From contig CAZXND010000002.1 of NCBI GenBank assembly GCA_964641355.1, positions 70,615 through 134,614 on the forward strand: a DNA stretch of 64,000 nt. The letters are read 5' to 3'. This DNA comes from an uncultured Gammaproteobacteria bacterium (lineage in GTDB: Bacteria > Patescibacteriota > Microgenomatia > Levybacterales > GWA1-39-11). The position numbers and the translations under genes are program-made. Below the pieces are notes generated by a model. That model saw only the letters and a program-made list of their open reading frames with translations. It did no database searches and was not told the origin of the DNA. Shown here one piece after another: positions 387-43,448 of this stretch. Numbering within the stretch: position 1 is the stretch's first letter; each line of letters opens with the position of its first letter.

Positions 387-1850
387 CTAAATGTTATCGG
401 AATTTTTATCTACTACAAGCTTATATGCTAAGGTGTAAATATCGCCTGCACCCATGGTCAAAATGAGGGTATTACTACCTCTAAAATTCTCGATCAAGTA
501 TTCTACCATAAAATCATCATTTTTCGAAAAAGTCACGTCACGACCAAGCTTTCTGAATTCATCCATAAGCTTAGCATAAGAATAATCCTTTACCTCTTCT
601 CTTTGAGTAATATAGACTGGTGCAATTATTGTACTATCCGCCCTTCCAAAAGCTTGGGCAAAATCGCTTAAAAGTGCTTCCGTACGAGAGATACTGTGAG
701 GCTGGAAAATCACAACTATTTTCTTCTCCGGATATGCTCTTTTTACAGCATCGAGTGTAGCCTTAATCTCTTGAGGATGATGCGCATAATCATCAAAAAC
801 AAGGGTGTCGTATTTAGTTTTCCCTATCATTTCAAGCCTTCTTTTTGTACCCGAAAACTTAGACAAAGCAGTCTGAAGTTTGTCTGGATGATAGCCAAGT
901 TCAATTCCGAGAGCAATAATAGAAAGAGCATTTTGCGCATTATGAACCCCAGGAACAGAAAGAGTAAAATCACCGAATTTTATTTCACGACCCTCTACTG
1001 CAAAAAAGGAGTTAAGCCCACTTTCTCTAAAATTGGTGAAGTAATAGTCGTTTGTAGAGCTGGCACCGTATGTTATAACTGTTATATCGCTTCTTACTTT
1101 ATTTCTGAGAGACTGTAACCTTTGATCGTCACCATTAAGAAAAAGCAATCCATTCTCCTTAATTCTTTCCACAAACTTTTCAAAAACTTTTTCAACTTCG
1201 TCAATGCTCCCGTAAAAATCCGGATGGTCAAAGTCTATATTGTTAATTATGACAGCATAAGGTAATAAGTACAGGATTTTTGGAGTTTTGTCATAATTTA
1301 TCTCTGAGACATATTCATCTCCTTCAGCAATGAAGTAATTACCCTTTCCCAAATGTCCTGAAGCTCCCAATGGGAATATCTCTCCACAACCAACACTATA
1401 AGAAGGTTCTGCGCCAAGCTCAGACAAAACAGTTGCAGCCATGGCAGAAATAGTAGTTTTTCCATGAGAGCCAGCAATTGCAATCCCTTTTAAATTCTTC
1501 TTCGACAAAATAGCGCCTTCCATAAATTCTCCCAATGCTTGTCCTTGAGTCAAAACCTTTATTCCAAGATTTCGAGCCGCAATAACTTGAGGATTATCAA
1601 AACCTCTATGGGCACCTGTTGTTATCACAAGACACTTATCGATCGCTTCGCCCCTAAAGAAGTCTTCAATGTTTTTTGCTTCAAATCCTTCATCTATTTT
1701 TATTTTCGCCTCCAAAAGCTCTTTATCTGTTATAAACTTTTCATCTATGTCAGACCCTCTGACTTCCATCTTTGCTTGTGAAGCAATAATTGCCAAAGGC
1801 GCCACTCCAACACCTTTAATCCCTACAAAATAAACTTTTGAGTACATCAT
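387..1850 (-). CDS. murC: UDP-N-acetylmuramate--L-alanine ligase
   Basis: 487 aa. N-terminus VYFVGIKGVGVAPLA matches the MurC P-loop-like start. GSHGKTT Mur-ligase ATP motif. Full three-domain length. Confidence 0.85.
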   Translation of the reverse strand: MMYSKVYFVGIKGVGVAPLAIIASQAKMEVRGSDIDEKFITDKELLEAKIKIDEGFEAKNIEDFFRGEAIDKCLVITTGAHRGFDNPQVIAARNLGIKVLTQGQALGEFMEGAILSKKNLKGIAIAGSHGKTTISAMAATVLSELGAEPSYSVGCGEIFPLGASGHLGKGNYFIAEGDEYVSEINYDKTPKILYLLPYAVIINNIDFDHPDFYGSIDEVEKVFEKFVERIKENGLLFLNGDDQRLQSLRNKVRSDITVITYGASSTNDYYFTNFRESGLNSFFAVEGREIKFGDFTLSVPGVHNAQNALSIIALGIELGYHPDKLQTALSKFSGTKRRLEMIGKTKYDTLVFDDYAHHPQEIKATLDAVKRAYPEKKIVVIFQPHSISRTEALLSDFAQAFGRADSTIIAPVYITQREEVKDYSYAKLMDEFRKLGRDVTFSKNDDFMVEYLIENFRGSNTLILTMGAGDIYTLAYKLVVDKNSDNI

Positions 1851-3049
1851 TTAATTAATCCTCTTTCCTTTAATGCATCATTGATCACTTTAAATTCATC
1901 CCAGGGTTCTTCACCATTTCCTAAATTTATAGATTTTTCATGACTCTTTCCTGTCAGAAGAATAAAATCTCCTCTTTTTGCCATATTTATCGCCTTAAAA
2001 ATAGCTTCTCTCCTATTATTAATTTGCACGAGAGACGAAAAATTACTCGGAATTCCTGATTGAATATCACGATTTATATTTTCAATTTTTTCTTTTCTTG
2101 GATCTTCAGAAGTTAAGATTATTAAATCAGACCATTTACTCGATTCCTCTCCCATCATAGGTCTTTTAGTGGCATCTCGCTCTCCTGCCGAACCAAAAAC
2201 GTGTATGAGTCTGCCTTTTTTTTCTCTTGAAATTTCTGAAAGAAGCTTGGCAAAAGCATTAGGCGTGTGAGCAAAATCGACCATCACGGTAAATTCTTTC
2301 TGATACACAATTTCTTGTCTACCTGAAGGAAGGTCAAAATTTAACACCGCTTCTCTTATCTTCTTACTCTCTACACCCAGCACTTTTGAAGCTGCAACAG
2401 CGGCTAAAATATTATACTTATTAAAATCACCTATTAATTTTGACCTGAACTTAAAATTATCAGGATTAATAGTAGAGTTCTGACCAAAGCCGTAAGTCAT
2501 AAATTTTTTATTTCTGATATTTAGTATTTTATTTTTAAGGTTAATTATTTGCTTATAAGATTTGTCATCTCTATTTAAAATGCAATTCTTTGAATCTTCA
2601 AAAAGCTTCAATTTAGCTCTTAGATACTTATCATATGTTTTATGGTAGTCGAGGTGTTCATGACTAATATTTGTAATTACTCCTACTTCAAAGGAAATTA
2701 AAGCTACTCTATTTTGATCCAAGGCGTGAGAAGTAGTCTCAAGCACAACAAATTCGACCCCACGCGATCTAGCTTCAGAAAGATATCTTTGAATCTGGAT
2801 TGAGCTTGGAGTTGTAACGTGAAAACCAGTATCATATGAAGTGTTATCTATATATGCTCCAACCGTTGAAATTAGAGCTACTTTCTTCCCTGCGTGCTTT
2901 AGTATATGGTAAATAAGGCTTGAAGTTGTAGTTTTTCCATCTGTTCCTGTGACTCCTATTACTTTTAGTCTTGAGGCTGGAAATCCATATATGACTGTAG
3001 CCAGTATCGCTACGAGCAAATGATAGACATTTTTAACTTCCTGATACAT
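1847..3049 (-). CDS. murE: Mur ligase, MurE-like (UDP-MurNAc-tripeptide synthetase), lacking the usual N-terminal domain
   Basis: 400 aa. GVTGTDGKTTT P-loop occurs only about 30 aa from the start. C-terminal TSEDPRKE resembles the MurE DNPR diamino-acid selectivity motif. Sits between ftsI and murC as in dcw clusters. Confidence 0.65.
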   Translation of the reverse strand: MYQEVKNVYHLLVAILATVIYGFPASRLKVIGVTGTDGKTTTSSLIYHILKHAGKKVALISTVGAYIDNTSYDTGFHVTTPSSIQIQRYLSEARSRGVEFVVLETTSHALDQNRVALISFEVGVITNISHEHLDYHKTYDKYLRAKLKLFEDSKNCILNRDDKSYKQIINLKNKILNIRNKKFMTYGFGQNSTINPDNFKFRSKLIGDFNKYNILAAVAASKVLGVESKKIREAVLNFDLPSGRQEIVYQKEFTVMVDFAHTPNAFAKLLSEISREKKGRLIHVFGSAGERDATKRPMMGEESSKWSDLIILTSEDPRKEKIENINRDIQSGIPSNFSSLVQINNRREAIFKAINMAKRGDFILLTGKSHEKSINLGNGEEPWDEFKVINDALKERGLIK

Positions 3050-3141
3050 ATTTATGCCTAAATTTATAGGTTTATTATTATACTATAAGATAGATATAAA
3101 CTCAATTTATACTTTAGTTTAGCAATTATCATCCAATTAAC

Positions 3142-4833
3142 CTAGTATGTCGGTCGGATATTATAATAATTCAAAATTTGTCTTGCGATTGAAAAAAATA
3201 TTGGAGCTGCCGTTTCGGCTCCATAAATTGATTTTTTAGGCCTATCTACAAGAACAAGCATCGATATTTTTGGATCGTTGGCTGGAAAAAAACCGACAAA
3301 TGAGGCTATTGTTTTAGTGGGATCATAATGTCCAGCGACTGGAATTTGAGCCGTTCCTGTTTTTCCGGCGAATTTATAATCAGGTATTTTTGCCCATTTG
3401 GCCTCACCCTTTTCAACAGCATTAACCATAACCCATGTCATCACCTTAGCAGTAGACTCTTTTATTACGCGCCCTTTGGATTCAGGCTTTATTAACACTT
3501 CTTTTCCATCTTCTTTGATTATTTTTGAAACCACATAAGGCTTCATCAAATTGCCCCCATTGGCAATAGTATTCACTGCAACGATTAGCTGCATAGGAGT
3601 AATTGAAATTCCTTGGCCAAAACTCGAAGTAGCAAGATCTATCGGATACCATAAATCTCTATCGCGTATCGATCCACTAATTTCACCCTGAAGGTCAATT
3701 TCTGTATTATCATTTATTCCAAAATCGGTTAAATACTTTATCATCTTGTCAATTCCCAATTTTTTAGCTACAAAGACCATACCTGTATTATCAGAATGTT
3801 GAATTACTTCGGTCATCGTCGTATTTGGATAGTATTTTTCATTCCACGTCTTAATTGAGTATTCACCGATTTTTATGGCAGCAGAGCATATATCACATTT
3901 CGTATCAGGCTTTACCAGATCCAGATCCATTCCAGAAGACATTACGAGGACTTTAAAAGTGGATCCTGGTTCGTAAAGACTTGAAATGGCGGGATTTTTA
4001 TAAGAGGAAGAGTCAAAGTCGTAATAATCTTGCGGATTGAAGTTTGGAAATGAAGCCATGGCCAAAACTTTTCCGCTAGCAGGCTCCATAATAATTACAG
4101 TTCCGCCATCAGCATCATAAGTATTTATTCCGCGAGAAAGCTCTTTCTGTGCATAATACTGTATTGTTCTATCTATATTAAGAACGATATTTCTCCCGTC
4201 TATTTTTGGCAATTGCCTAATATCATTAATTATCGTATTTCCAAGAGCATCTTTTACTACATAAAGCTTCCCATCTCGGCCTTTAAGCTGCTCATTATAA
4301 AATCCCTCAAGACCAAAATATCCCTTGTCCTCTCCGTTCTCATCTTTTCCTACAAAGCCTATTAAGTGCGCAGCCATTGACCCTTCTGGATAATACCTAT
4401 CAGTCTCCTGTTGAAATCCGATTCCTGAAAGTTTTTCATGTTCAATATTTTTCCTTGTAGCATCATCAACCTTTGAAGCAAGTCTTACCCAAAAAAGATT
4501 TTGAGAAAGTTTTGCAGAGATTGAGGACTCGGGGAGAGATAAAAGTTCGGATAGTTTTTTTGCATACTCATCTTTGTTGTTTATTAACTTCGGATTAGCG
4601 TATACTAAATAACTTATCTTATTTGTTGCTAAGGGGAAATTATCGCTTGTTAGAATATCTCCCCTTGAAGATTTTTGGATTAGTGACTCTGTGCTTTGCG
4701 CTTCACCTATCTTTTTAAGATCGGCTCCTCGCAATACCTGCCAATAGAAAAGTTTTAAAAGCACAAAGAGATACAGAAAGAGGAAAAAAACTAAGACTAT
4801 TGTAAACCTGAAATTATCCCACCGGATTGACAT
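3142..4833 (-). CDS. ftsI: Penicillin-binding protein / peptidoglycan D,D-transpeptidase FtsI (class B PBP)
   Basis: 563 aa with an N-terminal TM. STFK (SxxK), HSDN (SxN) and KTGTA (KTG) transpeptidase motifs. Canonical position after ftsL. Confidence 0.85.
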   Translation of the reverse strand: MSIRWDNFRFTIVLVFFLFLYLFVLLKLFYWQVLRGADLKKIGEAQSTESLIQKSSRGDILTSDNFPLATNKISYLVYANPKLINNKDEYAKKLSELLSLPESSISAKLSQNLFWVRLASKVDDATRKNIEHEKLSGIGFQQETDRYYPEGSMAAHLIGFVGKDENGEDKGYFGLEGFYNEQLKGRDGKLYVVKDALGNTIINDIRQLPKIDGRNIVLNIDRTIQYYAQKELSRGINTYDADGGTVIIMEPASGKVLAMASFPNFNPQDYYDFDSSSYKNPAISSLYEPGSTFKVLVMSSGMDLDLVKPDTKCDICSAAIKIGEYSIKTWNEKYYPNTTMTEVIQHSDNTGMVFVAKKLGIDKMIKYLTDFGINDNTEIDLQGEISGSIRDRDLWYPIDLATSSFGQGISITPMQLIVAVNTIANGGNLMKPYVVSKIIKEDGKEVLIKPESKGRVIKESTAKVMTWVMVNAVEKGEAKWAKIPDYKFAGKTGTAQIPVAGHYDPTKTIASFVGFFPANDPKISMLVLVDRPKKSIYGAETAAPIFFSIARQILNYYNIRPTY

Positions 4834-4835
4834 TT

Positions 4836-5159
4836 TTACCTCTGAGCAAAACTCTTGGGACCGGATAAGGAAATTGTATTTTTATTATTTTCTACAAATC
4901 CTATCTCTCCTGCCTTTGAAGCAACATAATCATAGGATGTGTATTTTAACACTTCTGTTTTAAGTAATGTATTTTTTTCAGATAGATCTTCCACTTTTGC
5001 TTTAACATTTGCTGCATAAATACTATTTGTAGATATACTATTTGATAAATGTATATTCACAATTTGAAGAACGGCAAAAAGCACTACTAAAAATGCCAAA
5101 AACAACTTCGCTTTTTTTCCTCCTGGCAATTTATTATTAGACATCTTATAAATTTTCAT
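4836..5159 (-). CDS. ftsL: Cell division protein FtsL-like (small bitopic membrane protein)
   Basis: 107 aa with a single TM followed by a coiled-coil-like segment. Located between rsmH and ftsI, the conserved FtsL position. Confidence 0.55.
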   Translation of the reverse strand: MKIYKMSNNKLPGGKKAKLFLAFLVVLFAVLQIVNIHLSNSISTNSIYAANVKAKVEDLSEKNTLLKTEVLKYTSYDYVASKAGEIGFVENNKNTISLSGPKSFAQR

Positions 5160-5162
5160 AAA

Positions 5163-6068
5163 CTACGCCTTAATCTTTTCTAAAATCCTCATTTTTGCAC
5201 TTCTTGATCTTGGGTTTTCGTAAATTTCACTATCACTTGCTACAACTGGCTTTTTTAAAAACACATATCCAGACTCTCTCATGGTGTTTTTAACAATACG
5301 ATCCTCAAGAGAATGGAATGATATAACGCACAAGATTCCTTTCTCAGAAAGCAAAGACACTGAATCTGTTAATGCTTCTTTCAGATTAGACAATTCATTA
5401 TTTACTGCAATTCTTAATGCCATAAATACTTTTGTCGCCGGATGTATCTTACCCTCACGTCTCACATTTTCCTCTATTAACGATGCGAGCTCAGTTGTCC
5501 TCTCTATTGGCTTTATTTTTCTTGCAGCATCAATTACTTCTGCGATTTTAACTGCATTTCTATCTTCCCCATATTTAGCGAAGAGAATCGAAAGCTCGTC
5601 TTTTGTCCAATTATTCACAATTGATAATGCTGAAAGGTCTGATTTTTTATTCATTCTCATATCAAGAATCTCGTCCTTTTTAAAACTGAATCCACGTCCC
5701 GATTGGTCAATTTGATAAGAAGAAAGTCCAAGATCAAATAAAATCCCGTCTACTTTCTCAAATCCAAATCTTGCCGCAAGCCCTTTTATGTCCGAGAAGT
5801 TTCCAAGAGCCAAAGTTAAATTCTTTTCCCCGAAAAACTTTTTCTGTACAAAACTTATCGCGTCTTCATCTTGATCAATACCAAGCACTATTCCACCCCG
5901 CTCAATTATTTCCTTTGTATGACCTCCTCCTCCGATGGTTGCATCTATGTATTTTCCCCCAGGCTTTATTTTGAGTGCTTCTATTGCCTCATTTTTAAGA
6001 ACACTTATGTGAGAAAAGTCATTTTGATTCATTTGAGAGAGATTACTTTGAGTCATCGAGCTTTTCAA
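5163..6068 (-). CDS. rsmH: 16S rRNA (cytosine1402-N4)-methyltransferase RsmH (MraW)
   Basis: 301 aa. HISVLKNEAI...YIDATIGGGGHT is the RsmH SAM-binding N-terminus. Follows mraZ. Confidence 0.9.
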   Translation of the reverse strand: MKSSMTQSNLSQMNQNDFSHISVLKNEAIEALKIKPGGKYIDATIGGGGHTKEIIERGGIVLGIDQDEDAISFVQKKFFGEKNLTLALGNFSDIKGLAARFGFEKVDGILFDLGLSSYQIDQSGRGFSFKKDEILDMRMNKKSDLSALSIVNNWTKDELSILFAKYGEDRNAVKIAEVIDAARKIKPIERTTELASLIEENVRREGKIHPATKVFMALRIAVNNELSNLKEALTDSVSLLSEKGILCVISFHSLEDRIVKNTMRESGYVFLKKPVVASDSEIYENPRSRSAKMRILEKIKA

Positions 6069-6483
6069 TCAATTTTTCTGCAACTTCTGCGATGTTTTTT
6101 CTATTTTCTTCTTCATACTTCCTCCACGCTTCTAAATTCCAAACTTCAACATAAGTTTCTTGACCTACAAATACAACCTCTTCTCCCACGCGTGAATAGT
6201 CTCTTAGATACTCAGGTAATACAAATCTTCCCTGTCTATCAAGCTCGGCAAGCGTCGCTCCTCCAAGTAAAAATCGTCTGATATCTCGTGTTTCACTTAA
6301 TAAAAATGGTTTACCCTCAGTCCCTGTGAGTAGCGACCTCCAATTTTTCTCGGACACAACTATCAAAGAGCCTTCGAATCCGTAAGTTACGACGAGTTTA
6401 TCGCCTAATTCCTCACGAAATCTTTTCGGAAATGCAATTCGTGCTTTTTCTCCAACTTTTACTTTGAATTGACCAATTAACAT
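6043..6483 (-). CDS. mraZ: Transcriptional regulator MraZ
   Basis: 146 aa, two-repeat MraZ fold. N-terminus MLIGQFKVKVGEKARIAFPKRFRE resembles the MraZ DXXXR-containing start. First gene of the dcw cluster. Confidence 0.85.
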   Translation of the reverse strand: MLIGQFKVKVGEKARIAFPKRFREELGDKLVVTYGFEGSLIVVSEKNWRSLLTGTEGKPFLLSETRDIRRFLLGGATLAELDRQGRFVLPEYLRDYSRVGEEVVFVGQETYVEVWNLEAWRKYEEENRKNIAEVAEKLIEKLDDSK

Positions 6484-6530
6484 AAGAAGTATTTCTACAA
6501 ACTAACAAGTGAACATTTCTATTTAAATAA

Positions 6531-6569
6531 TTATAAACCATATTCACCATAATTCACCACTTTTCACCA
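6531..6569 (-). promoter_or_regulatory. Predicted mraZ promoter -10 (TATAAT on minus strand at 6536..6531) with three 10-bp-spaced direct repeats TGGTGAA (minus strand; TTCACCA on plus at 6543-6549, 6553-6559, 6563-6569). Candidate MraZ operator.
   Basis: Exact heptamer repeated 3 times with 10-bp periodicity, 60-85 bp upstream of the mraZ ATG and adjacent to a perfect TATAAT. MraZ operators in other bacteria are series of short direct repeats at about 10-bp spacing overlapping Pmra. Confidence 0.45.
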
Positions 6570-6713
6570 ATATTTAATTATTTTGATTCATTTTGAATCT
6601 GTTGTCAAGGGGTAAGATGCAGAAAAAACCAAGCATTTAACAACTTTATGGATTGAGATTTTACAATACACTAAATGTAGTAAAAATGATTAGAAAAAAA
6701 GAATCAGAGGAAA

Positions 6714-7208
6714 TTATTCAAGAGAGATTTTTTCAGTTACGGTTCCGATTTCTCCATTTGTATAGGTGACCTTAAGAACAACAGTTATATCTGAAGTAAC
6801 TTTGTCGTACTTACAAACATTTGCACTACATGTTCCAAGTAGGATTTCTCGAGTCACGCTTGACTCACCTGACTTTACTTGAATTGGACTTGCAACAACT
6901 CCGCGAGGAACATCACCTTCACCGCCAGCTTCCGGATCGGTATTTTCTGCATTGTAATTAACTTCGTACTCAATCGTAGAAATACCTGAAAGCTTGTTGA
7001 TTGTCATAATAACCGCTCTATTATCCGCGCGAGGCTTGAGTGATAATCCTATGTCGCTTGCTGAAATCTCCTTTACCTGTTGTTCTTCTTCTTGAGTTGG
7101 TTGCTCAGTGCCAGAGTTTCTTCCAAGAATAAAATATGCTCCACCACCAACTATAAGAATTAAAACTACTACTAGAATGAGGACTGTCTTATTTTTAAAG
7201 AAATTCAT
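6714..7208 (-). CDS. Hypothetical membrane-anchored/secreted protein
   Basis: 164 aa. N-terminal TM (VLILVVVLILIVGGGAYFIL), then an acidic linker and a beta-rich C-terminal domain. No recognisable family. Confidence 0.4.
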   Translation of the reverse strand: MNFFKNKTVLILVVVLILIVGGGAYFILGRNSGTEQPTQEEEQQVKEISASDIGLSLKPRADNRAVIMTINKLSGISTIEYEVNYNAENTDPEAGGEGDVPRGVVASPIQVKSGESSVTREILLGTCSANVCKYDKVTSDITVVLKVTYTNGEIGTVTEKISLE

Positions 7209-7252
7209 TTATGAAATAAGAATATAATAACCAAATTGAGAATGTCAATATA

Positions 7253-8566
7253 TCAAGAGATTTTTTCTTGAATATATTTAGAGAGTTCACTTATCTTCAT
7301 TCTCTCTTGAGTAGCTGTATCGCGATCCCTAACTGTAACTGTCTCATTTTCCAAAGTCTCATAATCTATTGTTATACAGTACGGCGTACCAATTTCGTCT
7401 TGAGCAAAATAACGCTTTCCAATATTTCCTCGACCATCGAATACAACAGGAAGAATATTGTCATGCTTAAGCATGGAATATACTTCTTTCGCCTTTCCCA
7501 TAATTTCTTCTTTATTAGCTACAAGAGGGAAAACGGCGGCCTTATACGGAGCCACTTTTGGAGATAATTGAAGAAAAACACGACCCGCATCTTCTCTATA
7601 TGAATCGAATAAGAGGAATAGCAATGTTCTATCAACTCCACAAGAAGTCTCGATGTCCCATGGAATATATGACTCACCTAAATCCTGATCACGATAAGTA
7701 AGGTCAACTCCAGAGTATTCCTGATGACGTCTTAAATCCCAGTCACTTCTATTATGAATTCCGGCAAGCTCCGACCAACCCCAAGGAGAATTATATTCTA
7801 TATCTGTTGCAGCCTTTGCATAGTGTGCGCGCTCATCTTCTTCGTGATCTCTAAATCTAAGACTTTCCTCTTTAAACCCAAGGGCTAAAAACCAGTCCAT
7901 TCTCATCTTTTTCCAATAATCAAACCACTTTTCCCCTTCTTTCTCCTCCGGTTTTATATAAAATTGCAATTCCATTTGCTCGAATTCCCGTGACCTGAAA
8001 GTAAAATTACCAGGAGTAATTTCGTTTCTAAAGGCTTTTCCGATTTGCGCAATTCCGAAAGGAATTTTTACTCGATTAGAATCAACAACGTTTTTAAAAT
8101 TAACATGAACTCCATTGGTAATTTCCCCACGAAGAAAAATTTCAGATTGCTCTCCTTCAATTACCCCAAGATAAGATTTTACCAAAAGATTAAATTCACG
8201 AGGACTTGTCCATTCAACTATCTCATCTTTGTGCTCTTGGGCATGTTGAGTTATTTCTTCTTTCTTGTCGGCACGAAATCTCTTGTGACATACCTTACAC
8301 TCAATTAGAGGATCTGTGAACGCTTCAAGATGTCCTGAAGCTTCCCATGCACGAGGATTCATCATAATTGCAGCGTCTACTCCTACCACATCCTCACGCT
8401 CATATACTACCGACTTCCAAAATTCTCGCTTGATATTATTTTTGAGCTCGACTCCTACAGGTCCATAATCCCAAGTACCAGCAAGACCTCCATAGATTTC
8501 TGATCCTTGATAGATAAAGCCTCTTCTTTTTGCTAGAGCTGCAACCTTTGCTACTAAATCATCCAT
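7253..8566 (-). CDS. glyQS: Glycine--tRNA ligase, dimeric (alpha2) type
   Basis: 437 aa. Class II aaRS with N-terminus RRGFIYQGSEIYGGLAGTWDYGPVGVELKNNI, typical of GlyQS-type GlyRS, and a C-terminal anticodon-binding domain. Confidence 0.85.
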   Translation of the reverse strand: MDDLVAKVAALAKRRGFIYQGSEIYGGLAGTWDYGPVGVELKNNIKREFWKSVVYEREDVVGVDAAIMMNPRAWEASGHLEAFTDPLIECKVCHKRFRADKKEEITQHAQEHKDEIVEWTSPREFNLLVKSYLGVIEGEQSEIFLRGEITNGVHVNFKNVVDSNRVKIPFGIAQIGKAFRNEITPGNFTFRSREFEQMELQFYIKPEEKEGEKWFDYWKKMRMDWFLALGFKEESLRFRDHEEDERAHYAKAATDIEYNSPWGWSELAGIHNRSDWDLRRHQEYSGVDLTYRDQDLGESYIPWDIETSCGVDRTLLFLLFDSYREDAGRVFLQLSPKVAPYKAAVFPLVANKEEIMGKAKEVYSMLKHDNILPVVFDGRGNIGKRYFAQDEIGTPYCITIDYETLENETVTVRDRDTATQERMKISELSKYIQEKIS

Positions 8567-8662
8567 GAGGGTAGTATACCAAAAGAAGAATTGAAGGTTA
8601 ATAACCTATCTTAAAATGAAATCCTATCAATGTCCAACATTATACAAAATACGACATGTCTG

Positions 8663-8691
8663 TTGAAATAGCCACAACGGAAGAGTAATAT
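8663..8691 (+). promoter_or_regulatory. Sigma70-like promoter for the OLD-family gene: TTGAAA-17 nt-TAATAT
   Basis: TTGAAA at 8663-8668, 17-nt spacer, TAATAT at 8686-8691, about 29 nt upstream of the ATG at 8720. Lies in a divergent intergenic region shared with glyQS. Confidence 0.4.
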
Positions 8692-8719
8692 TGTCTTGCG
8701 TAATTGAAGCAAATCAAAA

Positions 8720-10399
8720 ATGATTAATAAAGTATCAATTGAAAATTTTCGTTCATTAAAGAAGGTCGAGATAGACTTAATCTTACTTCATGCGATTGTT
8801 GGAGAAAATGGCACAGGAAAAACATCTATTCTTGAGGCTATTAACTACGTCACCTCTAGAGAGTATGCATCAAGAAAAATTGACGAACAAGATTTCCACT
8901 CCGATGAGCCAATTCAAATTAAAGTTTATTTTGATAAATATTTTTCCCTTCAAACAAAGGACGGTTATGCTACAAAGAATATTCTCTGTAATGGTGTATT
9001 CCTGAGGGTTAAACGAAGAGAAAAGGCATCACCAGGAAGAGCACTCTCTGATGGCGTTACCATTGAACATTTAGTTATTCCCGTCACATACTCTAATCAA
9101 TCTGAGATTAAAGAAGAATTATTGCCTGAAGGAGTTACGAGAGATTCATTGCCCACCAAACTAGAACGAACAGAACAGGGATTTGAAGCTCCAAGAGCGT
9201 CCAGCAGTAATCCATGGCAAATATCCGCACAGACACTATCATTTAATGGTGGCGACCTTGTTGGGTTTCCTTCAATTTTTTACTTCGACAGATACAGAGA
9301 GTCTGAAGCTAAGATGGGATACAATTCTTTGTTCCAAAAAATATCTAAAGAACTCGATTGGAGATATTTAAAATCGGTCAACTCAACGCAAACTTCCACA
9401 GATTGGGAAACCTACTACAATCCTGTTGTTGAGTCTGTTAAAAGCGAAAAACGAAGCAACATTCTTGACCCAATAAGAAATGATGCGCAACGCATTCTAG
9501 GTAAGGATTTTTCGAATTTTGAAATTGGTCTACATCATCTCAAGCAACCATTTAAACAGTCTTTCTTTTCACTTAGAAATCCAGGCGAGATAACACAAAT
9601 AGAATTTTCAAAAATGGGCTCAGGAGTGTGTACGCTCATTGCATATCTTCTCCTAAAAACAATAAGTAATTTATCAAAACAGGAAGTAGTATTTTTGATT
9701 GACGAGCCAGAAATGCATCTTCACTCTCAGGCAAGAACTGCACTTTTTGAAGAGTTCTTGAACTCAAGTAATCAAATTGTTTATACAACACATTCTGAAT
9801 TTTTTGTTGATTTAACAAATTGGAAAGGCGTATTAAGAATTGACGAAAAAAATAACACATTTCCACTGCCTGAAACTCTAGAAGAAACAATTAATGGTCA
9901 GACTATGCAAGACCATCTTGATGAAATAAAAACCTGGCATCAAGATAAAACAATTTATAATAAAGAAAACAATGAAATATTTTTTGCAAGAAAGGTTATC
10001 TTAACTGAGGGACCAATCGATAAATTTGGCATACGCAGATTTGAAGGTTTAATGGGTATACGGATTACTGACTCAACAATCATAAGCTGCAACGGTAAAA
10101 GTAAAATTCCCTATTACCAACTACTTTGCAAAGCGTTTGGAATTCCCTACTTCACCCTTATAGACTTAGACACTAAAGCTGAAACGGATACTGAAAATAA
10201 ATCGTTAATTGACTGGGTGGAAAACGATGCTTCTGCAAAATTTGAAAATTCTTTCGAAAACTCGCTTGGTATAAATCCAGACACTCATAAAGGGTCAGAA
10301 GTATTGAAGCATATAGAAAGTATTACTTCTAAAGAGACAATTCCGCAGGACATTCGTGAAGCTATTGAGAAGATTCAGTCATGGTCAACCAGCGATTAA
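8720..10399 (+). CDS. OLD-family (overcoming lysogenization defect) ATP-dependent nuclease, class 1: N-terminal ABC-like ATPase plus C-terminal Toprim
   Basis: 559 aa. Walker A GENGTGKTS near the N-terminus. Walker B/H-loop FLIDEPEMHLHSQ. C-terminal Toprim with catalytic Glu (ILTEGPIDKFGI), CNGKS glycine turn and DxD (TLIDLDTK). No adjacent helicase partner, so single-gene class 1 arrangement. Confidence 0.75.
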   Translation: MINKVSIENFRSLKKVEIDLILLHAIVGENGTGKTSILEAINYVTSREYASRKIDEQDFHSDEPIQIKVYFDKYFSLQTKDGYATKNILCNGVFLRVKRREKASPGRALSDGVTIEHLVIPVTYSNQSEIKEELLPEGVTRDSLPTKLERTEQGFEAPRASSSNPWQISAQTLSFNGGDLVGFPSIFYFDRYRESEAKMGYNSLFQKISKELDWRYLKSVNSTQTSTDWETYYNPVVESVKSEKRSNILDPIRNDAQRILGKDFSNFEIGLHHLKQPFKQSFFSLRNPGEITQIEFSKMGSGVCTLIAYLLLKTISNLSKQEVVFLIDEPEMHLHSQARTALFEEFLNSSNQIVYTTHSEFFVDLTNWKGVLRIDEKNNTFPLPETLEETINGQTMQDHLDEIKTWHQDKTIYNKENNEIFFARKVILTEGPIDKFGIRRFEGLMGIRITDSTIISCNGKSKIPYYQLLCKAFGIPYFTLIDLDTKAETDTENKSLIDWVENDASAKFENSFENSLGINPDTHKGSEVLKHIESITSKETIPQDIREAIEKIQSWSTSD

Positions 10400-10496
10400 T
10401 CCACGTATTTACCACAATAAATTTTGTCTATTGTTAAAATTTTTGTTGCGCGCTAGTATTGTGGGGATTATGAAAATTAACGTTAATTCTTCTGTC

Positions 10497-10967
10497 TTAG
10501 AAATGCGGGAATTTCTTCATCAATCTCTTTTCAAAAATAACTAGAGAGTTGAGGGGATCTTCTATAAATTTCCACTCTTCTTTTTTACCCTTTTTAGAGA
10601 GTAAGGTTTTAACATGTCTTTCGTGACTCTTAAATTTAGATAAAATTTTCCCTGAAAGCACTTTATCATTTGAAATGCTAACACTCGCTATTTCTCCAAC
10701 AAGAGTTGAGTAACGAAGAGCAGAAGAATAAAAAAGGTCATACTTTTTATTCTCGGTAATATATCTAAGCTCCTTTAGCCTACTATCTAAAAGAGAGAGT
10801 CTGTATAAAATACTACTTTTTACTCCAGGCTGAATCCCCAGAATAACTTTTTCTTCAAGTCTTTTTACCAAAAAAAGAGGTGAATCAGGCATCGTGCTAA
10901 GAGAAAAAAGAAGGAAAAAAGAAATAAATAAGATCAAGGCAAAAAGTCCAAAAATTATCTTTTTCAT
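10497..10967 (-). CDS. Hypothetical membrane-anchored protein
   Basis: 156 aa. N-terminal TM FGLFALILFISFFLLF followed by a soluble helical domain. Vague similarity in layout to the 56722..57273 ORF. Confidence 0.35.
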   Translation of the reverse strand: MKKIIFGLFALILFISFFLLFSLSTMPDSPLFLVKRLEEKVILGIQPGVKSSILYRLSLLDSRLKELRYITENKKYDLFYSSALRYSTLVGEIASVSISNDKVLSGKILSKFKSHERHVKTLLSKKGKKEEWKFIEDPLNSLVIFEKRLMKKFPHF

Positions 10968-11005
10968 ACAACAATTATACTTTATGAATTTTAAAAGTCA
11001 CGAAA

Positions 11006-12526
11006 TTATTTTTGTTTTACTATATTCAAAACTACACCCTTACGCTTAACTTCATACACCACTTTCCCATCTTGTTCATTATTCTTTCCCCAACGAGTAA
11101 AACAATATCTAATTTTTGCTTTTTCATTATTTATCTCCATTTGAGATCCAAGATATGGTATGGCCAAATGGGGTATACATGGGAAGACGTATAATTTTTT
11201 ATCCTTCTTAGTTTTATTGTCTTTTATCCAATCAGTTGCTTCTTTAAAAGTTGCTCCCCAATAGTCAGTCTCAAATTTGTTATGCGCATTCTCTAGTCCC
11301 CCAACAAGCGAATTAAAGTATATGTATTGATAAGGATGAAGAAACACCATTTCTCTTGCTATAAAAATCGCACCAAGTAATAGAATTAAAAAAGACATAT
11401 ATCTAATAATTTTTCCAGACTTAATCAGAGAAAAAACACCAAGAGCAGAAATTATTACAATTGGACCTGATAAAAATAGAAACTGTCTCCAAGCATCATA
11501 AATCACGGGTTTTTTGAAGAAAATTAAAATAAGAGGGACAAAGAAAATGAGCAGTAAATAGCTATACAAAAGCTTTAAAGAAAGGTTCTCTTTAAATATT
11601 GAATAAATCAAATAGACAACCCCGATGGCAAAAAAAAGCAATGTTACAAGTGGGGTGGTTATAGTAATCCACGTAGGTAAATAATACCAAGGAATCGATT
11701 CTGGATTGTACATAATTCCTTGAAATAAAATTGCACCGGGATATGGATACTTCTCAGATGCTGAGATGATATTCAAAATTTCTAATGGTTTTAATAAAAG
11801 ATAAGGCGAAGAAAGATAAAATAATACAACAAAAGTAGAAAAGGTGACAGCTTGAAATTTTAAATATTTTTTAAAAGATTGCGTAAGGACTGATTGAATA
11901 AGCGAAATCACTAAAAAGATCAAATAAATATATAAGAGTGCAGGACGTAGCGATACAACAAGCGCAAAAAGCATTCCAATGACTATAGAAGTTGAAATCT
12001 TTTGCTCGGAAAAATATTTAATAGAAAAATAGATTGTTGGAAGTAACAAAACTGCAGCCCCGATATCTTTGCTATTTGTGAAAATATCTCCATAAAAACG
12101 AGGCATAAAAAGAAGGAAGAAAAAAGATACTGTTGATGCCGTATAGCTTTTTGTAATAAGTAACACTAGTTTATAAATAAAGTAAAACCCAAGTAGAGAA
12201 AATAGTGCTAAAAAAAGATGATAGTATTCAATACTGTTTAGACTTAGTGATTGCAAGAGACTTGTTCGAGTTATCTCAAGAATTGAACCGTGAGTTAGAA
12301 AAAATTCCGGCTCAATAGATAGTTTTAGAAAAGAAGTATCTCTACCAAATGATGCATAAAACAATAAAGTATTTTTCCCAAGAGCTAAAACATCTTGCTC
12401 ATCAAATGTTGTTCCGTAGTTAGAAAATGTGAAAACTATCAGAAGAAAAATTATCGCAAGTAAAATAAATATTAACTTCCTTTGAAGAAATTGAAGTTTT
12501 GAGTCATTCTTTTTCGATTTAACCAC
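11006..12526 (-). CDS. Polytopic membrane glycosyltransferase, GT-C fold (ArnT/PMT-like, GT39/GT83-like)
   Basis: 506 aa with about 11 predicted TM segments. Acidic DE-containing first external loop (TTFDEQDVL). About 100-aa soluble C-terminal domain. Architecture typical of undecaprenyl-phosphate-sugar dependent GT-C enzymes. Confidence 0.5.
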   Translation of the reverse strand: MVKSKKNDSKLQFLQRKLIFILLAIIFLLIVFTFSNYGTTFDEQDVLALGKNTLLFYASFGRDTSFLKLSIEPEFFLTHGSILEITRTSLLQSLSLNSIEYYHLFLALFSLLGFYFIYKLVLLITKSYTASTVSFFFLLFMPRFYGDIFTNSKDIGAAVLLLPTIYFSIKYFSEQKISTSIVIGMLFALVVSLRPALLYIYLIFLVISLIQSVLTQSFKKYLKFQAVTFSTFVVLFYLSSPYLLLKPLEILNIISASEKYPYPGAILFQGIMYNPESIPWYYLPTWITITTPLVTLLFFAIGVVYLIYSIFKENLSLKLLYSYLLLIFFVPLILIFFKKPVIYDAWRQFLFLSGPIVIISALGVFSLIKSGKIIRYMSFLILLLGAIFIAREMVFLHPYQYIYFNSLVGGLENAHNKFETDYWGATFKEATDWIKDNKTKKDKKLYVFPCIPHLAIPYLGSQMEINNEKAKIRYCFTRWGKNNEQDGKVVYEVKRKGVVLNIVKQK

Positions 12527-12603
12527 AATAATATCTATTAAATTTTATCTATATAAAAAACTAAAACTTAAAGCCTGGCCAGGCGCTAACACTTCAGAAA
12601 AAT

Positions 12604-12798
12604 TTATCTTCTCTTTTTCCCAGCTAGAAGGTGGTAAGCAAGTATTACTGCTGCCCCTCCGAATACAACTACGTTAACGGCTGTTGCTAATGTTCCAAAA
12701 AATTGATTTACCAAATTAACTCCGGAAAACTCTTCGTAAGCAATAACTAATCCACCAAGTATAAGTGCCCATTGAGCGACTACTACTAAATTTTTCAA
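12604..12798 (-). CDS. Small two-TM membrane protein, unknown function
   Basis: 64 aa, two hydrophobic helices and a basic C-terminus GKKRR. No family assignment possible. Confidence 0.3.
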   Translation of the reverse strand: MKNLVVVAQWALILGGLVIAYEEFSGVNLVNQFFGTLATAVNVVVFGGAAVILAYHLLAGKKRR

Positions 12799-12980
12799 GT
12801 TATTTCACCTCCCTTCGAAAGAAACGCACCCATATAGCGAACCACTTTTCTTGTTATTTGTCAACGATCCTATAACCTACCGTTTAGCTCTGTAAAAAAA
12901 TAAAAAATTATGTGATAGTTATTTTACATTAATCACTTATCAGGTTTGCGTTTTTCTAAAAAAAAGTTTACAAATTATCT

Positions 12981-13271
12981 ATGGATCAAAAAAACAAACA
13001 AGACATATCAAGCCCAACTAATCAGGCATTAAATACTAATGCAGCAGTCGCGCCCAATAATGAAGGATCAAGATCGCAGGACCAAACACGGGAAGTCATG
13101 ATAGAAAAAAAAGAAGAAGAGGAGATGGAAGAATATAAAGAAGAAAAGCCAAAGGAAGATTTTGAAAGTTGGAGAATAAATAAAAGGGTCGATGCAAAAA
13201 TCTGGCAGTTAGTAATCGGATTTATTATCGCACTTCTTGCATTTATTGCCTGGAGTCAAATATTTTCATAA
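12981..13271 (+). CDS. Hypothetical tail-anchored protein (charged E/K-rich N-terminus, C-terminal TM)
   Basis: 96 aa. Low-complexity KEEEEMEEYKEEKPKE region, then a single C-terminal TM IWQLVIGFIIALLAFIAW. Confidence 0.3.
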   Translation: MDQKNKQDISSPTNQALNTNAAVAPNNEGSRSQDQTREVMIEKKEEEEMEEYKEEKPKEDFESWRINKRVDAKIWQLVIGFIIALLAFIAWSQIFS

Positions 13272-13315
13272 TATTTATATCTTCAATAACAACTTATAAG
13301 TGATATAATTTCTGC

Positions 13316-14608
13316 GTGTTATTTTTTTTCTTCCTCCTCTATCTACTATTCCCCCAAAAAGCTTATGCCCAGATACAGGAAATCCAACATGTTATTTCTA
13401 CGGGACAAAGTCTTGCGCAGGGGGCGGCAGGATATCCATCACTATCCAAAACTCAAAAATACGACAATATAATGCTAAGTGGTGGAAAACCACTCTCAAA
13501 TCTTAAAGATATAGAAAATGCCAACTTCACACCTCTTATTGAGGGAGGGGAGGAGTCAATAAGCTCAGGACTAGCCAACTATGTAGCTAAAAATAGTAAA
13601 GACAGAAAATTTCAAATTGAAATAAATGCTAACGGGTGGGGTGGAAGAAGCTACTCACTTATAAAAATAGGCACAGAGCCTTTTACATATAATATAAAGG
13701 AGGTAGAAAGATCTAAGTATCTTGCTGAAAATGAAGGAAAAAAATACAAAGTTACCGCAATAACACTAATACATGGAGAAGCCGATGATGATCTTTATAG
13801 AGTTGGGGACACATGCCCGAACTATCAAAAGAATCTTTTAGAATTGCAGAAAGATTATAATAGCGAAATCAAAAAAATTACTGGTCAAAGTGAAAATATC
13901 CCTCTTTTTACAGATCAGCTAAGCTCGTATTCCTCTCGAGCGAAGTCTCCATGTGTAACTCTTGCACAACTCATAGCTTCTAAGGTAGAACCAAAAAAAA
14001 TTATACTCGTTGGTCCCAAATATTTCCTCACTTATCAAGGTGACAGTCCACATCTAAACAATTATGGCTATCGACTGCTTGGAGAATATTATGGCAAGGT
14101 TTATAAAAAAGTTATTATAGACAAAAAAAAGTGGACACCTCTATCCCCCAGCTCTATAACGCGGAAAGGAAGAACAATCACCTTAGATCTTTTTGTTCCA
14201 AAACCACCAATCGTAATTGATTTTGAAAGAGTAAAAAAACAAAAAAATTTTGGGTTTGAGTTTTTTAGTCCAAATCTCGAAATAGGAATAAAAAGTGTTA
14301 AGATAATTTCTCCAACTAAAATAGAGATAAAACTAGATAAACTTCCTAAAGCAAAAGTAGAAAAACTACGCTATGCTTACTCAGCGATATTGGGATCAAG
14401 TTCGGGAGCTACTCCATCCGGATCTCCTCGAGGCAATATAAGAGACAGTGATATCGGAAATTCTCTTTATAAAACTCCCTTATATAATTGGCTCGTTCAC
14501 TTTGATGAGCCCATCAAAGTCTTGTCAGAAGAAGAAACCATACAAGAGAAATCTGAGAGTTTTATAACCAATTTTGAAGAGAAAATAGGATTTAAGCTGT
14601 TTAACTAA
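13316..14608 (+). CDS. Secreted SASA/CE6-like (sialate O-acetylesterase-type, SGNH-related) esterase domain protein
   Basis: 430 aa. Signal peptide MLFFFFLLYLLFPQKAYAQ. TGQSLAQG resembles the GQSN catalytic-serine motif and IHGEADDD resembles the QGESD motif of the SASA/DUF303 family. Extra C-terminal beta-rich domain. Confidence 0.5.
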   Translation: MLFFFFLLYLLFPQKAYAQIQEIQHVISTGQSLAQGAAGYPSLSKTQKYDNIMLSGGKPLSNLKDIENANFTPLIEGGEESISSGLANYVAKNSKDRKFQIEINANGWGGRSYSLIKIGTEPFTYNIKEVERSKYLAENEGKKYKVTAITLIHGEADDDLYRVGDTCPNYQKNLLELQKDYNSEIKKITGQSENIPLFTDQLSSYSSRAKSPCVTLAQLIASKVEPKKIILVGPKYFLTYQGDSPHLNNYGYRLLGEYYGKVYKKVIIDKKKWTPLSPSSITRKGRTITLDLFVPKPPIVIDFERVKKQKNFGFEFFSPNLEIGIKSVKIISPTKIEIKLDKLPKAKVEKLRYAYSAILGSSSGATPSGSPRGNIRDSDIGNSLYKTPLYNWLVHFDEPIKVLSEEETIQEKSESFITNFEEKIGFKLFN

Positions 14609-14623
14609 ACTTTGATGTTAGAC

Positions 14624-14689
14624 CTTAAAAAAGACGTAGTCTTTATTTTAAAAACTTAAAATTTAAAAAAAGACGTAGTCTTTATTTTC
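14624..14689. terminator. Two tandem copies of a 23-25 bp element AAAAAAGACGTAGTCTTTATTTT (short hairpin AAAGAC-GTA-GTCTTT flanked by A-run/T-run) between convergent genes. Candidate bidirectional terminator.
   Basis: Copy 1 at 14627-14649 is intergenic. Copy 2 at 14665-14688 overlaps the last codons of recO. The symmetric A-run/T-run flanks allow termination in both directions. The stem is short, so function is uncertain. Confidence 0.35.
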
Positions 14690-15192
14690 TTTTCAATTAT
14701 TCTTTCTATAAAAATTGAAAGCTCTTCATTACTTCTAAATTTATCCCGACTATCCCAAAACCCAAGACTTGCTAACATTTTAGTTTGAAAATCAAGCATT
14801 TCCTCATCTCTATCATCTCTATTAAAATTATTTAAAGTTGCCTCTACAAGGGAAAATACTTCAAAGTTTTTCTGTTCGCTTGCACAAAGCGAATTTATAA
14901 GTTCGCAAATAAGAAACATTTTACCGATGTGCTTCATCTCATTTCTGATGTTAGAAAACGTATTTACCACTTCTACTTCTGTGAGAATATGGTTTCTTTT
15001 TGTTTTTGTTGTTTGAAAACGTATAAGATTAAGCAGTTCTATGTGAGGAGCACGTCTTGAGTTAATCCTTCTTACCCCTTTTGCCAAAACTTCTATCTTT
15101 CCATGATCTTGAGTAAAAAGAGTAAGATAACGATCAGATTCTCCAAGATTGACTCTTTTAATTACAAACCCCGTATCTTTGAGGTAAATCAT
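14656..15192 (-). CDS. recO: DNA repair protein RecO (short form)
   Basis: 178 aa. N-terminus MIYLKDTGFVIKRVNLGESDRYLTLFTQDHGKIEVLAKGVRR matches the RecO OB-fold N-terminal domain. The C-terminal domain is shortened. Confidence 0.7.
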   Translation of the reverse strand: MIYLKDTGFVIKRVNLGESDRYLTLFTQDHGKIEVLAKGVRRINSRRAPHIELLNLIRFQTTKTKRNHILTEVEVVNTFSNIRNEMKHIGKMFLICELINSLCASEQKNFEVFSLVEATLNNFNRDDRDEEMLDFQTKMLASLGFWDSRDKFRSNEELSIFIERIIEKKIKTTSFFKF

Positions 15193-22180: not shown

Positions 22181-23346
22181 ACCTTATTCATTTTTAAACC
22201 AATTTTTTCCCACGAATAATTTTCCTCAACAACTTTTCTTGCATTTTTAGTAATTCTATTACCAAGATCTTTACTGTTAAATAACTCATTTATTTTTTCT
22301 CTGAATTCTCGCCCGCTGCGTGCTGCAAGAAAATCCCTTCCGTCTATGACGGAAAGACCTGCCAACCTTTCGGCAAAAGCTACGATCGGTACCCCCATTG
22401 CCATTGCTTCAATAACTTTAAAATTAGTACCACCGCCGTACCTCACGGGAAAAACAAATATCTCTGATCTTTCATATACTGTCCTTATGTCGTCAATAAA
22501 TTCAATTATATTTATTCGTGGATCATATGGGATTGAGAGCTTCCTAGAGTTTTTTCCTATAATAGTTAGTGTTACATCTCTATCACTTATTTTAGAAAAA
22601 ACATTATCATAAAAAAACTTCATTGCATCAACATTGGGAAAGTAGGAAAAATTACCAACAAAGAGAAGATTTTTTCCAGTATACTCTTCGTTATTCTGTT
22701 TTAAAGGGAAATTATTAACATCGATTCCATTTTCGATAACATAACACGACTTATTCCTTTTATAAATGTAATCAGCCTCTTCGTTGGTCACTGCAATACA
22801 TGTGTCAGCTAATTTTATAAATTTTTCCTCTTCTGTTTTTATTGTCTTTGCTTGTTTAGCATAAAAAAATCTAGAAACAAAAGATGAAGCATTTCTGGAA
22901 TAGTCCTCGTACAATTTGTATTCTATGTTTTCTGTACCAAAAATTTGTTTAACAGAAAGCTCTTTTATTTTTTTAGATATATAAAAACCTGTATAAAAAG
23001 ACTCAAAGTGTACTACGTCTATTTTATCTCTTTTTATTTTTTCAATAATTTCTTTCTCTATCTCATCTTCATAATAAAGGTGCTTAAAGATTGAACTTGA
23101 TGGACTAAATGAAGAAACAAAACTTTTTGGACTTTTTGCTCTTTTCCTCTTAAAAGTTAGCACATCTTTTACTCCAATCTCTTTCATTTTTTCATGATCC
23201 TCTTTTCTAAATCCCTCGCGAGTAAAAGAAACTAAATGAATTTCCAAATCCTTTCCCCCAAATTTTATTAAGTTGTAAGCTCTATTTTTTCCTCCTGAGT
23301 TAGTAGGGTATGGAAAATCATAAGTTATAAAAAGAATTTTTTTCAT
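22165..23346 (-). CDS. Glycosyltransferase family 4
   Basis: 393 aa. MKKILFITYDFPYPTNSGGKNRAYNL N-terminus. C-terminal GGGTNFKVIEAMAMGVPIV. Confidence 0.75.
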   Translation of the reverse strand: MKKILFITYDFPYPTNSGGKNRAYNLIKFGGKDLEIHLVSFTREGFRKEDHEKMKEIGVKDVLTFKRKRAKSPKSFVSSFSPSSSIFKHLYYEDEIEKEIIEKIKRDKIDVVHFESFYTGFYISKKIKELSVKQIFGTENIEYKLYEDYSRNASSFVSRFFYAKQAKTIKTEEEKFIKLADTCIAVTNEEADYIYKRNKSCYVIENGIDVNNFPLKQNNEEYTGKNLLFVGNFSYFPNVDAMKFFYDNVFSKISDRDVTLTIIGKNSRKLSIPYDPRINIIEFIDDIRTVYERSEIFVFPVRYGGGTNFKVIEAMAMGVPIVAFAERLAGLSVIDGRDFLAARSGREFREKINELFNSKDLGNRITKNARKVVEENYSWEKIGLKMNKVWKEI

Positions 23347-43134: not shown

Positions 43135-43448
43135 AGCTCTTTAAATTTCTGAAAGACCGCAATAACTAAAAAAAGATACACAAAAACAGCAACTCTTTCA
43201 CTGAATGGCACTATCTGTCCAGGATTAATAAACTCAACTAAATTTGTAAAAATAAATAAAACAAAAGAATAAAAAATAAGCATCATTGAAAGAACTATTG
43301 TCATATTAGCAGTAATTTTTTTAATAGATATTAAGAATAAATATAGTGTTAGTATGGTAAAAATTCTTAAATCAGAACTTTCTCTGAAAATTAGCACTTC
43401 AAGTACGATAATTATAAAAGTCGATAAAATATAAAATAATTTACTCAT
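43131..43448 (-). CDS. Small multi-TM membrane protein, paralog of 40740..41075 (GtrA-like candidate)
   Basis: 105 aa, 3-4 predicted TM segments. Sequence similarity to the 111-aa ORF as listed there. Immediately downstream of paralog 43441..45852, with a 8-nt overlap suggesting coupling. Confidence 0.4.
   Translation of the reverse strand: MSKLFYILSTFIIIVLEVLIFRESSDLRIFTILTLYLFLISIKKITANMTIVLSMMLIFYSFVLFIFTNLVEFINPGQIVPFSERVAVFVYLFLVIAVFQKFKEL

Follow-up and report, generated by a model that had tools for sequence, protein, structure and literature searches.

The DNA analysed here, called the window throughout, is a stretch of 64,000 nucleotides (nt) from the assembly GCA_964641355.1 (contig CAZXND010000002.1, positions 70,615 to 134,614, forward strand), which belongs to the Microgenomates group of the Candidate Phyla Radiation (CPR). 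It contains an open reading frame (ORF) of 559 amino acids (aa) that encodes an enzyme of the OLD family, i.e., an ABC-type ATPase that continues into a C-terminal Toprim nuclease domain. The gene, hereafter OLD, is located near recO, glyQS, and the dcw cluster (mraZ-rsmH-ftsL-penicillin-binding protein, PBP). Its parts and its immediate flanks are the following, with the residues compared to those of Ts OLD, the enzyme of Thermus scotoductus.

7253-8566, minus strand: glycine--tRNA ligase gene (glyQS), upstream and divergent (match 7.4e-172)
8567..8719, no strand: divergent glyQS/OLD spacer of 153 nt, from gene layout and sequence, with promoter-like sites on both strands
8663..8691, plus strand: candidate sigma-70-type promoter, TTGAAA-17 nt-TAATAT, matching 9 of the 12 consensus positions, with the -10 box ending 28 nt before the ATG
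8720..10399, plus strand: OLD-family ATPase-Toprim nuclease gene, assigned to Class 1 (559 aa and stop; from the ORF, domain searches, residue mapping, and predicted fold)
8801..8824, plus strand: Walker A/P-loop, GENGTGKT, aa 28-35 (K34 corresponds to K34 of Ts OLD)
9296..9505, plus strand: predicted three-helix domain that interrupts the ATPase, about aa 193-262 (AlphaFold secondary structure)
9692..9724, plus strand: Walker B and D-loop, FLIDEPEMHLH, aa 325-335 (D328/E329 align with Ts E276/E277, and H335 with the Ts D-loop H283)
9791..9793, plus strand: H-loop histidine H358 (aligned with Ts H310)
9980..10396, plus strand: C-terminal Toprim nuclease domain, aa 421-559, four-stranded, lacking a helical insert, with short C-terminal helices only
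10007-10012, plus strand: Toprim E430-G431
10163-10171, plus strand: Toprim D482-L-D484
10497-10967, minus strand: downstream neighbour, convergent, 156 aa, weakly DUF5667-like

The OLD ORF opens at the first start codon downstream of an in-frame stop, and this start appears sound because the alignments to the AAA_15 profile and to Ts OLD both begin at residue 1 of the protein. Since glyQS runs in the opposite direction and no plus-strand gene precedes OLD, the promoter of OLD must fall within the 153-nt spacer, which has to carry the promoters of both glyQS and OLD. A preliminary description of this DNA, made from the sequence alone, had credited the gene with a good TTGAAA-17-TAATAT promoter. 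The site exists, but its supposed strength comes down to a consensus match: the surrounding 2.7 kb holds 12 promoter-like sites versus 8.5 ± 2.8 in shuffled sequences, and thus the match taken alone has no statistical weight. No intrinsic-terminator-like hairpin was seen when one was looked for between the convergent OLD and 156-aa genes.

The three motifs on which the first reading was based (GENGTGKT, FLIDEPEMHLH, and E...G...DxD) are all present in the 559-aa ORF at the expected places, and domain searches, residue mapping, and the predicted fold agree on the OLD-family architecture of ATPase plus Toprim that it had proposed. The protein matches the Pfam families AAA_15 (6.5e-29) and AAA_21 (9.9e-17) above their curated thresholds, and the C-terminal Toprim domain predicted beforehand was recovered as OLD-like_TOPRIM over aa 421-484 (1.3e-12, 48.5 bits versus a cutoff of 23.2). 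The top PADLOC model was 'Old' (2.8e-39), with AriA and many GajA models coming next.

The residues up to D484 were mapped through a HMMER alignment to Ts OLD, where mutagenesis has established the importance of K34, E276, H283, and H310 in the ATPase and of E377/D431/D433, D381/S478/E480, and R487 in the nuclease (PMC7049728). In the metal A site, E430/D482/D484 correspond by this alignment to Ts E377/D431/D433. The metal B site is assigned to D434/S511/E513, versus Ts D381/S478/E480; D434 is aligned with D381, while the HMMER alignment ends at aa 485 and S511 and E513 were placed by their fit to the S-x-E pattern of Ts S478-x-E480. K524, located in a conserved 'HK' motif, is a positional candidate only for the transition-state residue R487 of Ts OLD.

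Among 36 homologues (31-57% identity), K34, D328, E329, H335, E430, D482, D484, and E513 are invariant, and the same holds for the P-loop residues G28, N30, G33, K34, and T35 and, around Walker B, for L326-E331, H333, and H335. Also invariant is R193, the first residue of the inserted domain and a candidate Q-loop residue. The position of H358 is occupied by H or Q, alternating across the subfamily. Because all the catalytic residues are intact, decay of the gene is unlikely, and a working nuclease is proposed as the most likely state of the protein.

An AlphaFold model was obtained from the 36-sequence alignment (mean pLDDT 84.9, pTM 0.82). The ATPase had been described as split by an insertion of roughly 250 aa. 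There is indeed an insertion, but it is smaller: most of the ~290 aa that separate Walker A from Walker B belong to the ATPase lobe, and the inserted domain accounts for about 70 aa (aa 193-262), with helices at 204-219, 222-239, and 242-260 and lower pLDDT there. Ts OLD carries a dimerisation domain inserted in its ATPase (PMC7049728); the three predicted helices occupy the equivalent position, and aa 193-262 presumably play the same part here.

The Toprim strands of the model are found at 425-429, 452-456, 477-482, and 505-508, with nothing other than a 7-aa linker (aa 499-504) between helix 491-498 and strand 505-508. The C-terminal tail extends 46 aa past E513, versus 48 aa past E480 in Ts OLD. 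According to the class criteria, which concern the Toprim helical insert and the C-terminal helical domain (PMC7049728, PMC12796447), the modelled fold follows the pattern of Class 1 and not that of Class 2 or Class 5. The comparison with GajA and with Old of phage P2 that had been recommended gave an OLD fold with 6P74 (Ts OLD) as the best match and P2 Old as a remote homologue at 22% identity. Foldseek ranked 6P74 first among the PDB entries (2.3e-25, TM 0.57/0.61), GajA second (4.6e-17), and retron, Septu, and Rad50 ATPases after them; 6P74 was also the best sequence match among solved structures (1.4e-23, covering the N-terminus and aa 226-485). The label GajA-like therefore holds for the ATPase-Toprim architecture but not for closeness, given that the corresponding sequence match to GajA is 2.8e-8.

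The gene had further been described as stand-alone, lacking a helicase/UvrD partner and being followed by a convergent gene, and this proved accurate. As in the single-gene systems of Class 1, there is no UvrD/PcrA/Rep-like helicase directly downstream, the convergent neighbour being the 156-aa DUF5667-like gene, which has no PADLOC match. None of the neighbouring genes matched a PADLOC defence model, no reverse transcriptase domain was found in the neighbours of OLD, and no Rfam family reached its gathering threshold anywhere in the 64-kb window. Taken together, the features that define the OLD family and Class 1 are present as far as they could be tested, and those of Classes 2, 3, and 4 are lacking.

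To place the gene in its genomic setting, species-representative genomes were scanned with the glycyl-tRNA synthetase (GlyRS) of the window, yielding 28 related loci, nearly all of them from the CPR (Daviesbacteria, Curtissbacteria, Microgenomates, and others), which were searched by tblastn with 14 window proteins. The order conserved in these relatives is DUF4012 protein - recO - glyQS - 164-aa protein - mraZ - rsmH - PBP. The preliminary description had placed OLD as an insertion amid housekeeping genes, and the comparison bears this out, since an additional ~6.1 kb separates glyQS from recO in the window:

8567..14655, no strand: window-specific segment of ~6.1 kb, flanked by glyQS and recO, OLD lying next to glyQS
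14656-15192: recO
within the segment, beside OLD: the 156-aa DUF5667-like gene, a 506-aa PMT_2 glycosyltransferase, and ORFs of 64, 96, and 430 aa

A homologue of OLD was detected in 0 of the 28 related loci, whose GlyRS are at most ~70% identical to that of the window, and the same negative result was obtained for the five window genes that follow OLD. In 14 of these loci recO keeps its place upstream of glyQS, and none of the six window genes has a homologue in the interval. The distance from recO to glyQS, in the loci where both could be detected, ranges from 130-230 bp to ~4.8 kb, with other content. Because both its size and its content differ among relatives, the recO-glyQS junction is variable. 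At the level of the family, OLD is an accessory gene; the possibility that it might be a conserved core gene, against which the first reading had asked to be checked, thus found no support in this set.

These data also bear on a different reading, in which the protein would be a housekeeping or cell-cycle enzyme of DNA maintenance, analogous to the archaeal Cran1 (Class 5 OLD), and not a defence factor. There is a precedent for it, since Cran1 is an OLD-family ATPase-nickase recruited to cell-cycle control (PMC12796447), and both the position of our gene beside recO, glyQS, and the dcw cluster and its host-like codon usage would be in line with such a role. However, no homologue was detected at the recO-glyQS-mraZ locus in any of the 28 related loci, and the subfamily is rare, patchy over phyla, and found in restriction-modification (R-M), toxin-antitoxin, and abortive infection (Abi) neighbourhoods (see below). 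In addition, the helical insert of the Cran1-type Toprim is missing from Class 1 and from our model. We consider this reading most unlikely.

The junction itself seems to take up lineage-specific cargo repeatedly. Two CPR relatives (L006 and L019) have almost nothing there, whereas six Curtissbacteria-like loci have a membrane-anchored protein of ~280 aa, one locus (L007) a predicted membrane protein of 208 aa, and five further related loci an ORF of ~630-700 aa. In the window, the segment genes other than OLD are of envelope type (the PMT_2 glycosyltransferase and membrane/secreted proteins) and have no PADLOC match.

At the recO-side edge of the segment we have observed a perfect 23-nt direct repeat, AAAAAAGACGTAGTCTTTATTTT, at 14627-14649 and 14666-14688. 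One copy constitutes the last 8 codons of recO and the other lies just beyond the recO stop; 0.01 such repeats are expected by chance, and this was the only significant one. It holds a small hairpin, AAAGAC-GTA-GTCTTT, and may represent a recombination scar or a duplicated terminator.

A segment of this kind could also be taken for a degraded mobile element or prophage, of which OLD would be a toxin-like or addiction component that stabilises the surrounding DNA. The old gene of P2 is prophage-borne and kills recBC cells, our gene sits at one edge of the window-specific 6.1-kb segment, and the duplication of the recO 3'-end marks the other. Nevertheless, no integrase, transposase, tRNA, or phage gene was found in the segment, viral contigs and phage genomes yielded no close homologues, and the composition of the gene is host-like, so that an addiction role appears highly improbable to us.

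As to the subfamily, no homologue is closer to the window protein than 57% identity. An exhaustive search of 1.84 billion cluster representatives yielded 82 sequences at E<=1e-30, about 30 of them full-length at E<1e-60; with the threshold relaxed to 1e-10 and 1e-3, the number rose to 805 and 5328, respectively. As judged from these sequence matches, this is a small subfamily within the very large OLD/AAA_15 superfamily. Its named members come from Omnitrophota, Dojkabacteria, Woesebacteria, Bacteroidota, Rhabdochlamydiaceae (Chlamydiae), and Nitrospirota, and this patchy spread over phyla suggests that its history includes horizontal transfer. The window gene, in turn, matches the host genes in GC, GC3, and codon usage and thus gives no sign of a recent transfer.

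The possibility that the subfamily is phage-borne was dropped, since viral contigs, phage genomes, and PHROGs yielded only distant OLD-like relatives. These are at most 31% identical over >100 residues, with higher values confined to a P-loop region of 40-70 residues, and the PHROGs matched by OLD are of unknown function. A scan of metagenome contigs with the family alignment gave 7 distant loci and no useful context, the patterns being too generic.

We have examined 11 distinct neighbourhoods of OLD homologues, among them the following:

L005 (OLD 55% identical), 1501-8281: hsdR-hsdM-OLD-hsdS and a PIN/PhD toxin-antitoxin pair
L067 (Woesebacteria contig), 529-7746: hsdR-hsdM-hsdS-OLD
L041 (Dojkabacteria): DpnII-like endonuclease and Panacea toxin-antitoxin module
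L043/L044 (Omnitrophota): Vsr, C5 methylase, NgoFVII-like endonuclease, MazG-like, OLD, and AbiE, in that order
L045: M78 peptidase/DUF4411 and lambda Ea47-like
L046: ParB-methylases and NYN
L068: BsaWI-like endonuclease and methylase
L069: DUF4011 helicase
L003: AbiJ-like and helix-turn-helix (HTH) genes

A UvrD-like helicase directly downstream of the OLD homologue was called in 0 of the 11 neighbourhoods. An all-against-all comparison of the neighbours revealed no common partner gene beyond hsd (L005 and L067) and a small HTH gene of the XRE type (two or three loci). Since the homologues are found amid R-M, toxin-antitoxin, and Abi genes and the location of the window gene is variable, the latter has the profile of an accessory defence gene.

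In L005 and L067 the genes of the type I R-M operon that includes OLD are separated by 0-2 nt, and the hsd genes of both are homologous. The embedding of two homologues in hsd operons suggests a functional tie between this OLD subfamily and type I R-M. From there one may envisage that the subfamily acts as a back-up guard for type I R-M, ancestrally co-transcribed with hsdRMS, triggered by the phage anti-restriction proteins that disable R-M, and cleaving tRNA or DNA like PrrC or PARIS. The window copy would be its free-standing derivative, i.e., an orphaned module that has no partner and is either inactive or served by hsd genes located elsewhere. PARIS AriAB and P2 OLD, which sense anti-defence activity and cleave tRNA, would fit such a scheme.

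It is to us the most interesting of the alternatives, and a doubtful one, because hsd genes occur in only 2 of the 11 homologue contexts, the others being varied and devoid of a common partner. No hsd gene was found near OLD in the window and no R-M domain in the ten large ORFs scanned at 17-64 kb, and all catalytic residues are intact, which argues against an inactive copy. Both the general proposal for the subfamily and its application to the window copy thus seem improbable. If true, they would imply that such guards can function when deprived of their R-M partner, in a reduced CPR genome.

The XRE-type HTH gene, of 70-75 aa, adjoins the OLD homologue in L003 (2763-2990) and L067 (7743-7955), the two versions being 56% identical over 68 aa, and in L067 it overlaps the OLD stop codon. 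The OLD proteins of L003 and L067 are 57% and 32% identical, respectively, to the window protein. No equivalent of this gene was seen among the ORFs that flank OLD in the window.

The explanation that we favour is that the window gene is a catalytically intact, stand-alone Class 1 OLD enzyme that acts as an accessory gene of defence against phages or mobile elements in a CPR genome of the Microgenomates group, and we hold it to be probable. This analysis has shown that the gene has the OLD architecture with its motifs intact and a predicted fold of Class 1 type, that no partner gene adjoins it, that it occupies a variable location and is not a core gene, and that its homologues occur in defence islands; with this the overall interpretation of the preliminary description is supported. 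Class 1 OLD enzymes, metal-dependent nucleases that hydrolyse ATP, are known to act in phage defence (PMC12392090, PMC12445682).

By analogy with these relatives, the defence role and the mechanism could be as follows. The protein would dimerise through the helices that interrupt its ABC ATPase, and the ATPase (K34, D328/E329, H335, and H358) would serve as a sensor or switch. Nucleic acid would be cut by the Toprim domain in a two-metal mechanism that involves E430/D482/D484, D434/S511/E513, and K524. On infection, the nuclease might either nick the replicating phage DNA, as Vc OLD of Vibrio cholerae does, or cleave host tRNA and lead to abortive infection, as in the case of P2 OLD.

Several points weigh against this explanation. 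The defence function of the protein and of its subfamily is proposed by family analogy, and one OLD class, that of the archaeal Cran1, has a role other than defence (PMC12796447). The 28 loci compared are distant relatives, as indicated by their GlyRS identities. There is no other defence gene near OLD in the window, the 6.1-kb segment has neither the mobility or phage genes looked for nor a flanking repeat pair around it, and the gene does not differ from the host genes in composition.

Class 1 is the least understood of the OLD classes, defence having been shown only for P2 Old and Vc OLD, on differing substrates (tRNA and DNA). The gene adds to it an intact divergent member from CPR/Microgenomates, a group of small genomes with little-explored immune repertoires, and it defines a small subfamily with two members fused into type I R-M operons. 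It can be detected by standard Pfam/PADLOC searches, being an ordinary but divergent Class 1 OLD from an under-studied lineage. Because the standard hidden Markov models used for finding defence genes would report it, its value lies in extending the catalogue and in offering a possible candidate for biochemical work.

Beyond this locus, the window has no tRNA genes in its 64 kb, and its GC content falls from ~0.36 in the first 10 kb to ~0.30 beyond 30 kb. Genes of envelope glycosylation are abundant (three PMT_2-type glycosyltransferases, two GT1/GT4 enzymes, and one DegT-family aminotransferase), and amid the glycosyltransferase genes there are five large ORFs of 1050, 677, 1216, 803, and 765 aa with no Pfam match at 1e-5, which may encode lineage-specific surface proteins.

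11006-12526, 23343-24782, 41830-43134, 48149-49303, 55470-56732, 59494-60726: envelope-glycosylation genes
24828-27980, 35095-37128, 37115-40765, 43441-45852, 45842-48139: the five large ORFs with no Pfam match

Among the known systems, the effector of retron Eco8 (Class 3) shares similarity in the ATPase (1.2e-12), but our gene has no adjacent reverse transcriptase or non-coding RNA. AriA of PARIS (Class 4) has a comparable N-terminal ABC ATPase (7e-31), the best stretch of the AriA model covering aa 1-81. Unlike PARIS, in which an AriA/AriB fusion is rare, the window protein fuses ATPase and Toprim with no separate AriB gene, and its Toprim matches OLD-like_TOPRIM; as judged from the sequence, a fused variant of PARIS is improbable. 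GajA of the Gabija system (Class 2) has the same ATPase-Toprim architecture, with PADLOC GajA matches down to 5e-30. However, the window gene is not followed by a gajB helicase gene and its product lacks both the Toprim helical insert and the C-terminal helical domain, and the similarity to the solved GajA chains, weak for the whole protein, is confined to short stretches in the N-terminal and Walker B regions.

Within Class 1, Old of phage P2 is likewise a single-gene ATPase-Toprim protein (586 aa versus 559 aa), and hhalign supports the homology with a probability of 99.3% over the C-terminal half of the ATPase and the Toprim, where the EG and DxD motifs are aligned. Besides the low identity, it differs in being prophage-borne, whereas the window gene lies on the chromosome and has no phage gene in its vicinity. 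P2 OLD removes the anticodon arm of tRNA-Thr in a manner dependent on ATP hydrolysis (PMC12445682); its RecBCD-linked trigger and its tRNA-Thr target cannot be transferred by inference to the window protein. Vc OLD resembles the window protein by description only, as a bacterial chromosomal single-gene OLD whose ATPase and nuclease residues are needed for defence, and it has been placed in a divergent clade; this enzyme is a nickase that halts the replication of the ICP1 phage genome (PMC12392090).

The closest solved relative is Ts OLD (PDB 6P74, Class 1), which degrades and nicks DNA in vitro (PMC7049728). The identity between the two proteins is only ~19-25%. Ts OLD has a Glu in Walker B where the window protein has the canonical Asp (D328), and the distance from the Walker A Lys to the candidate Q-loop residue is K34-H140 in Ts OLD versus K34-R193 in our protein, which is ~50 aa longer. 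In addition, the Arg of Ts OLD lies 7 residues past E480, while our candidate Lys lies 11 residues past E513. The overall layout is nonetheless common to both, i.e., the ABC ATPase, interrupted by a helical domain, precedes a four-stranded C-terminal Toprim that has no helical insert. The residues of the P-loop, Walker B, D-loop, H-loop, and metal A site align between the two enzymes, and those assigned to the metal B site correspond by alignment (D434) and by pattern (S511/E513).

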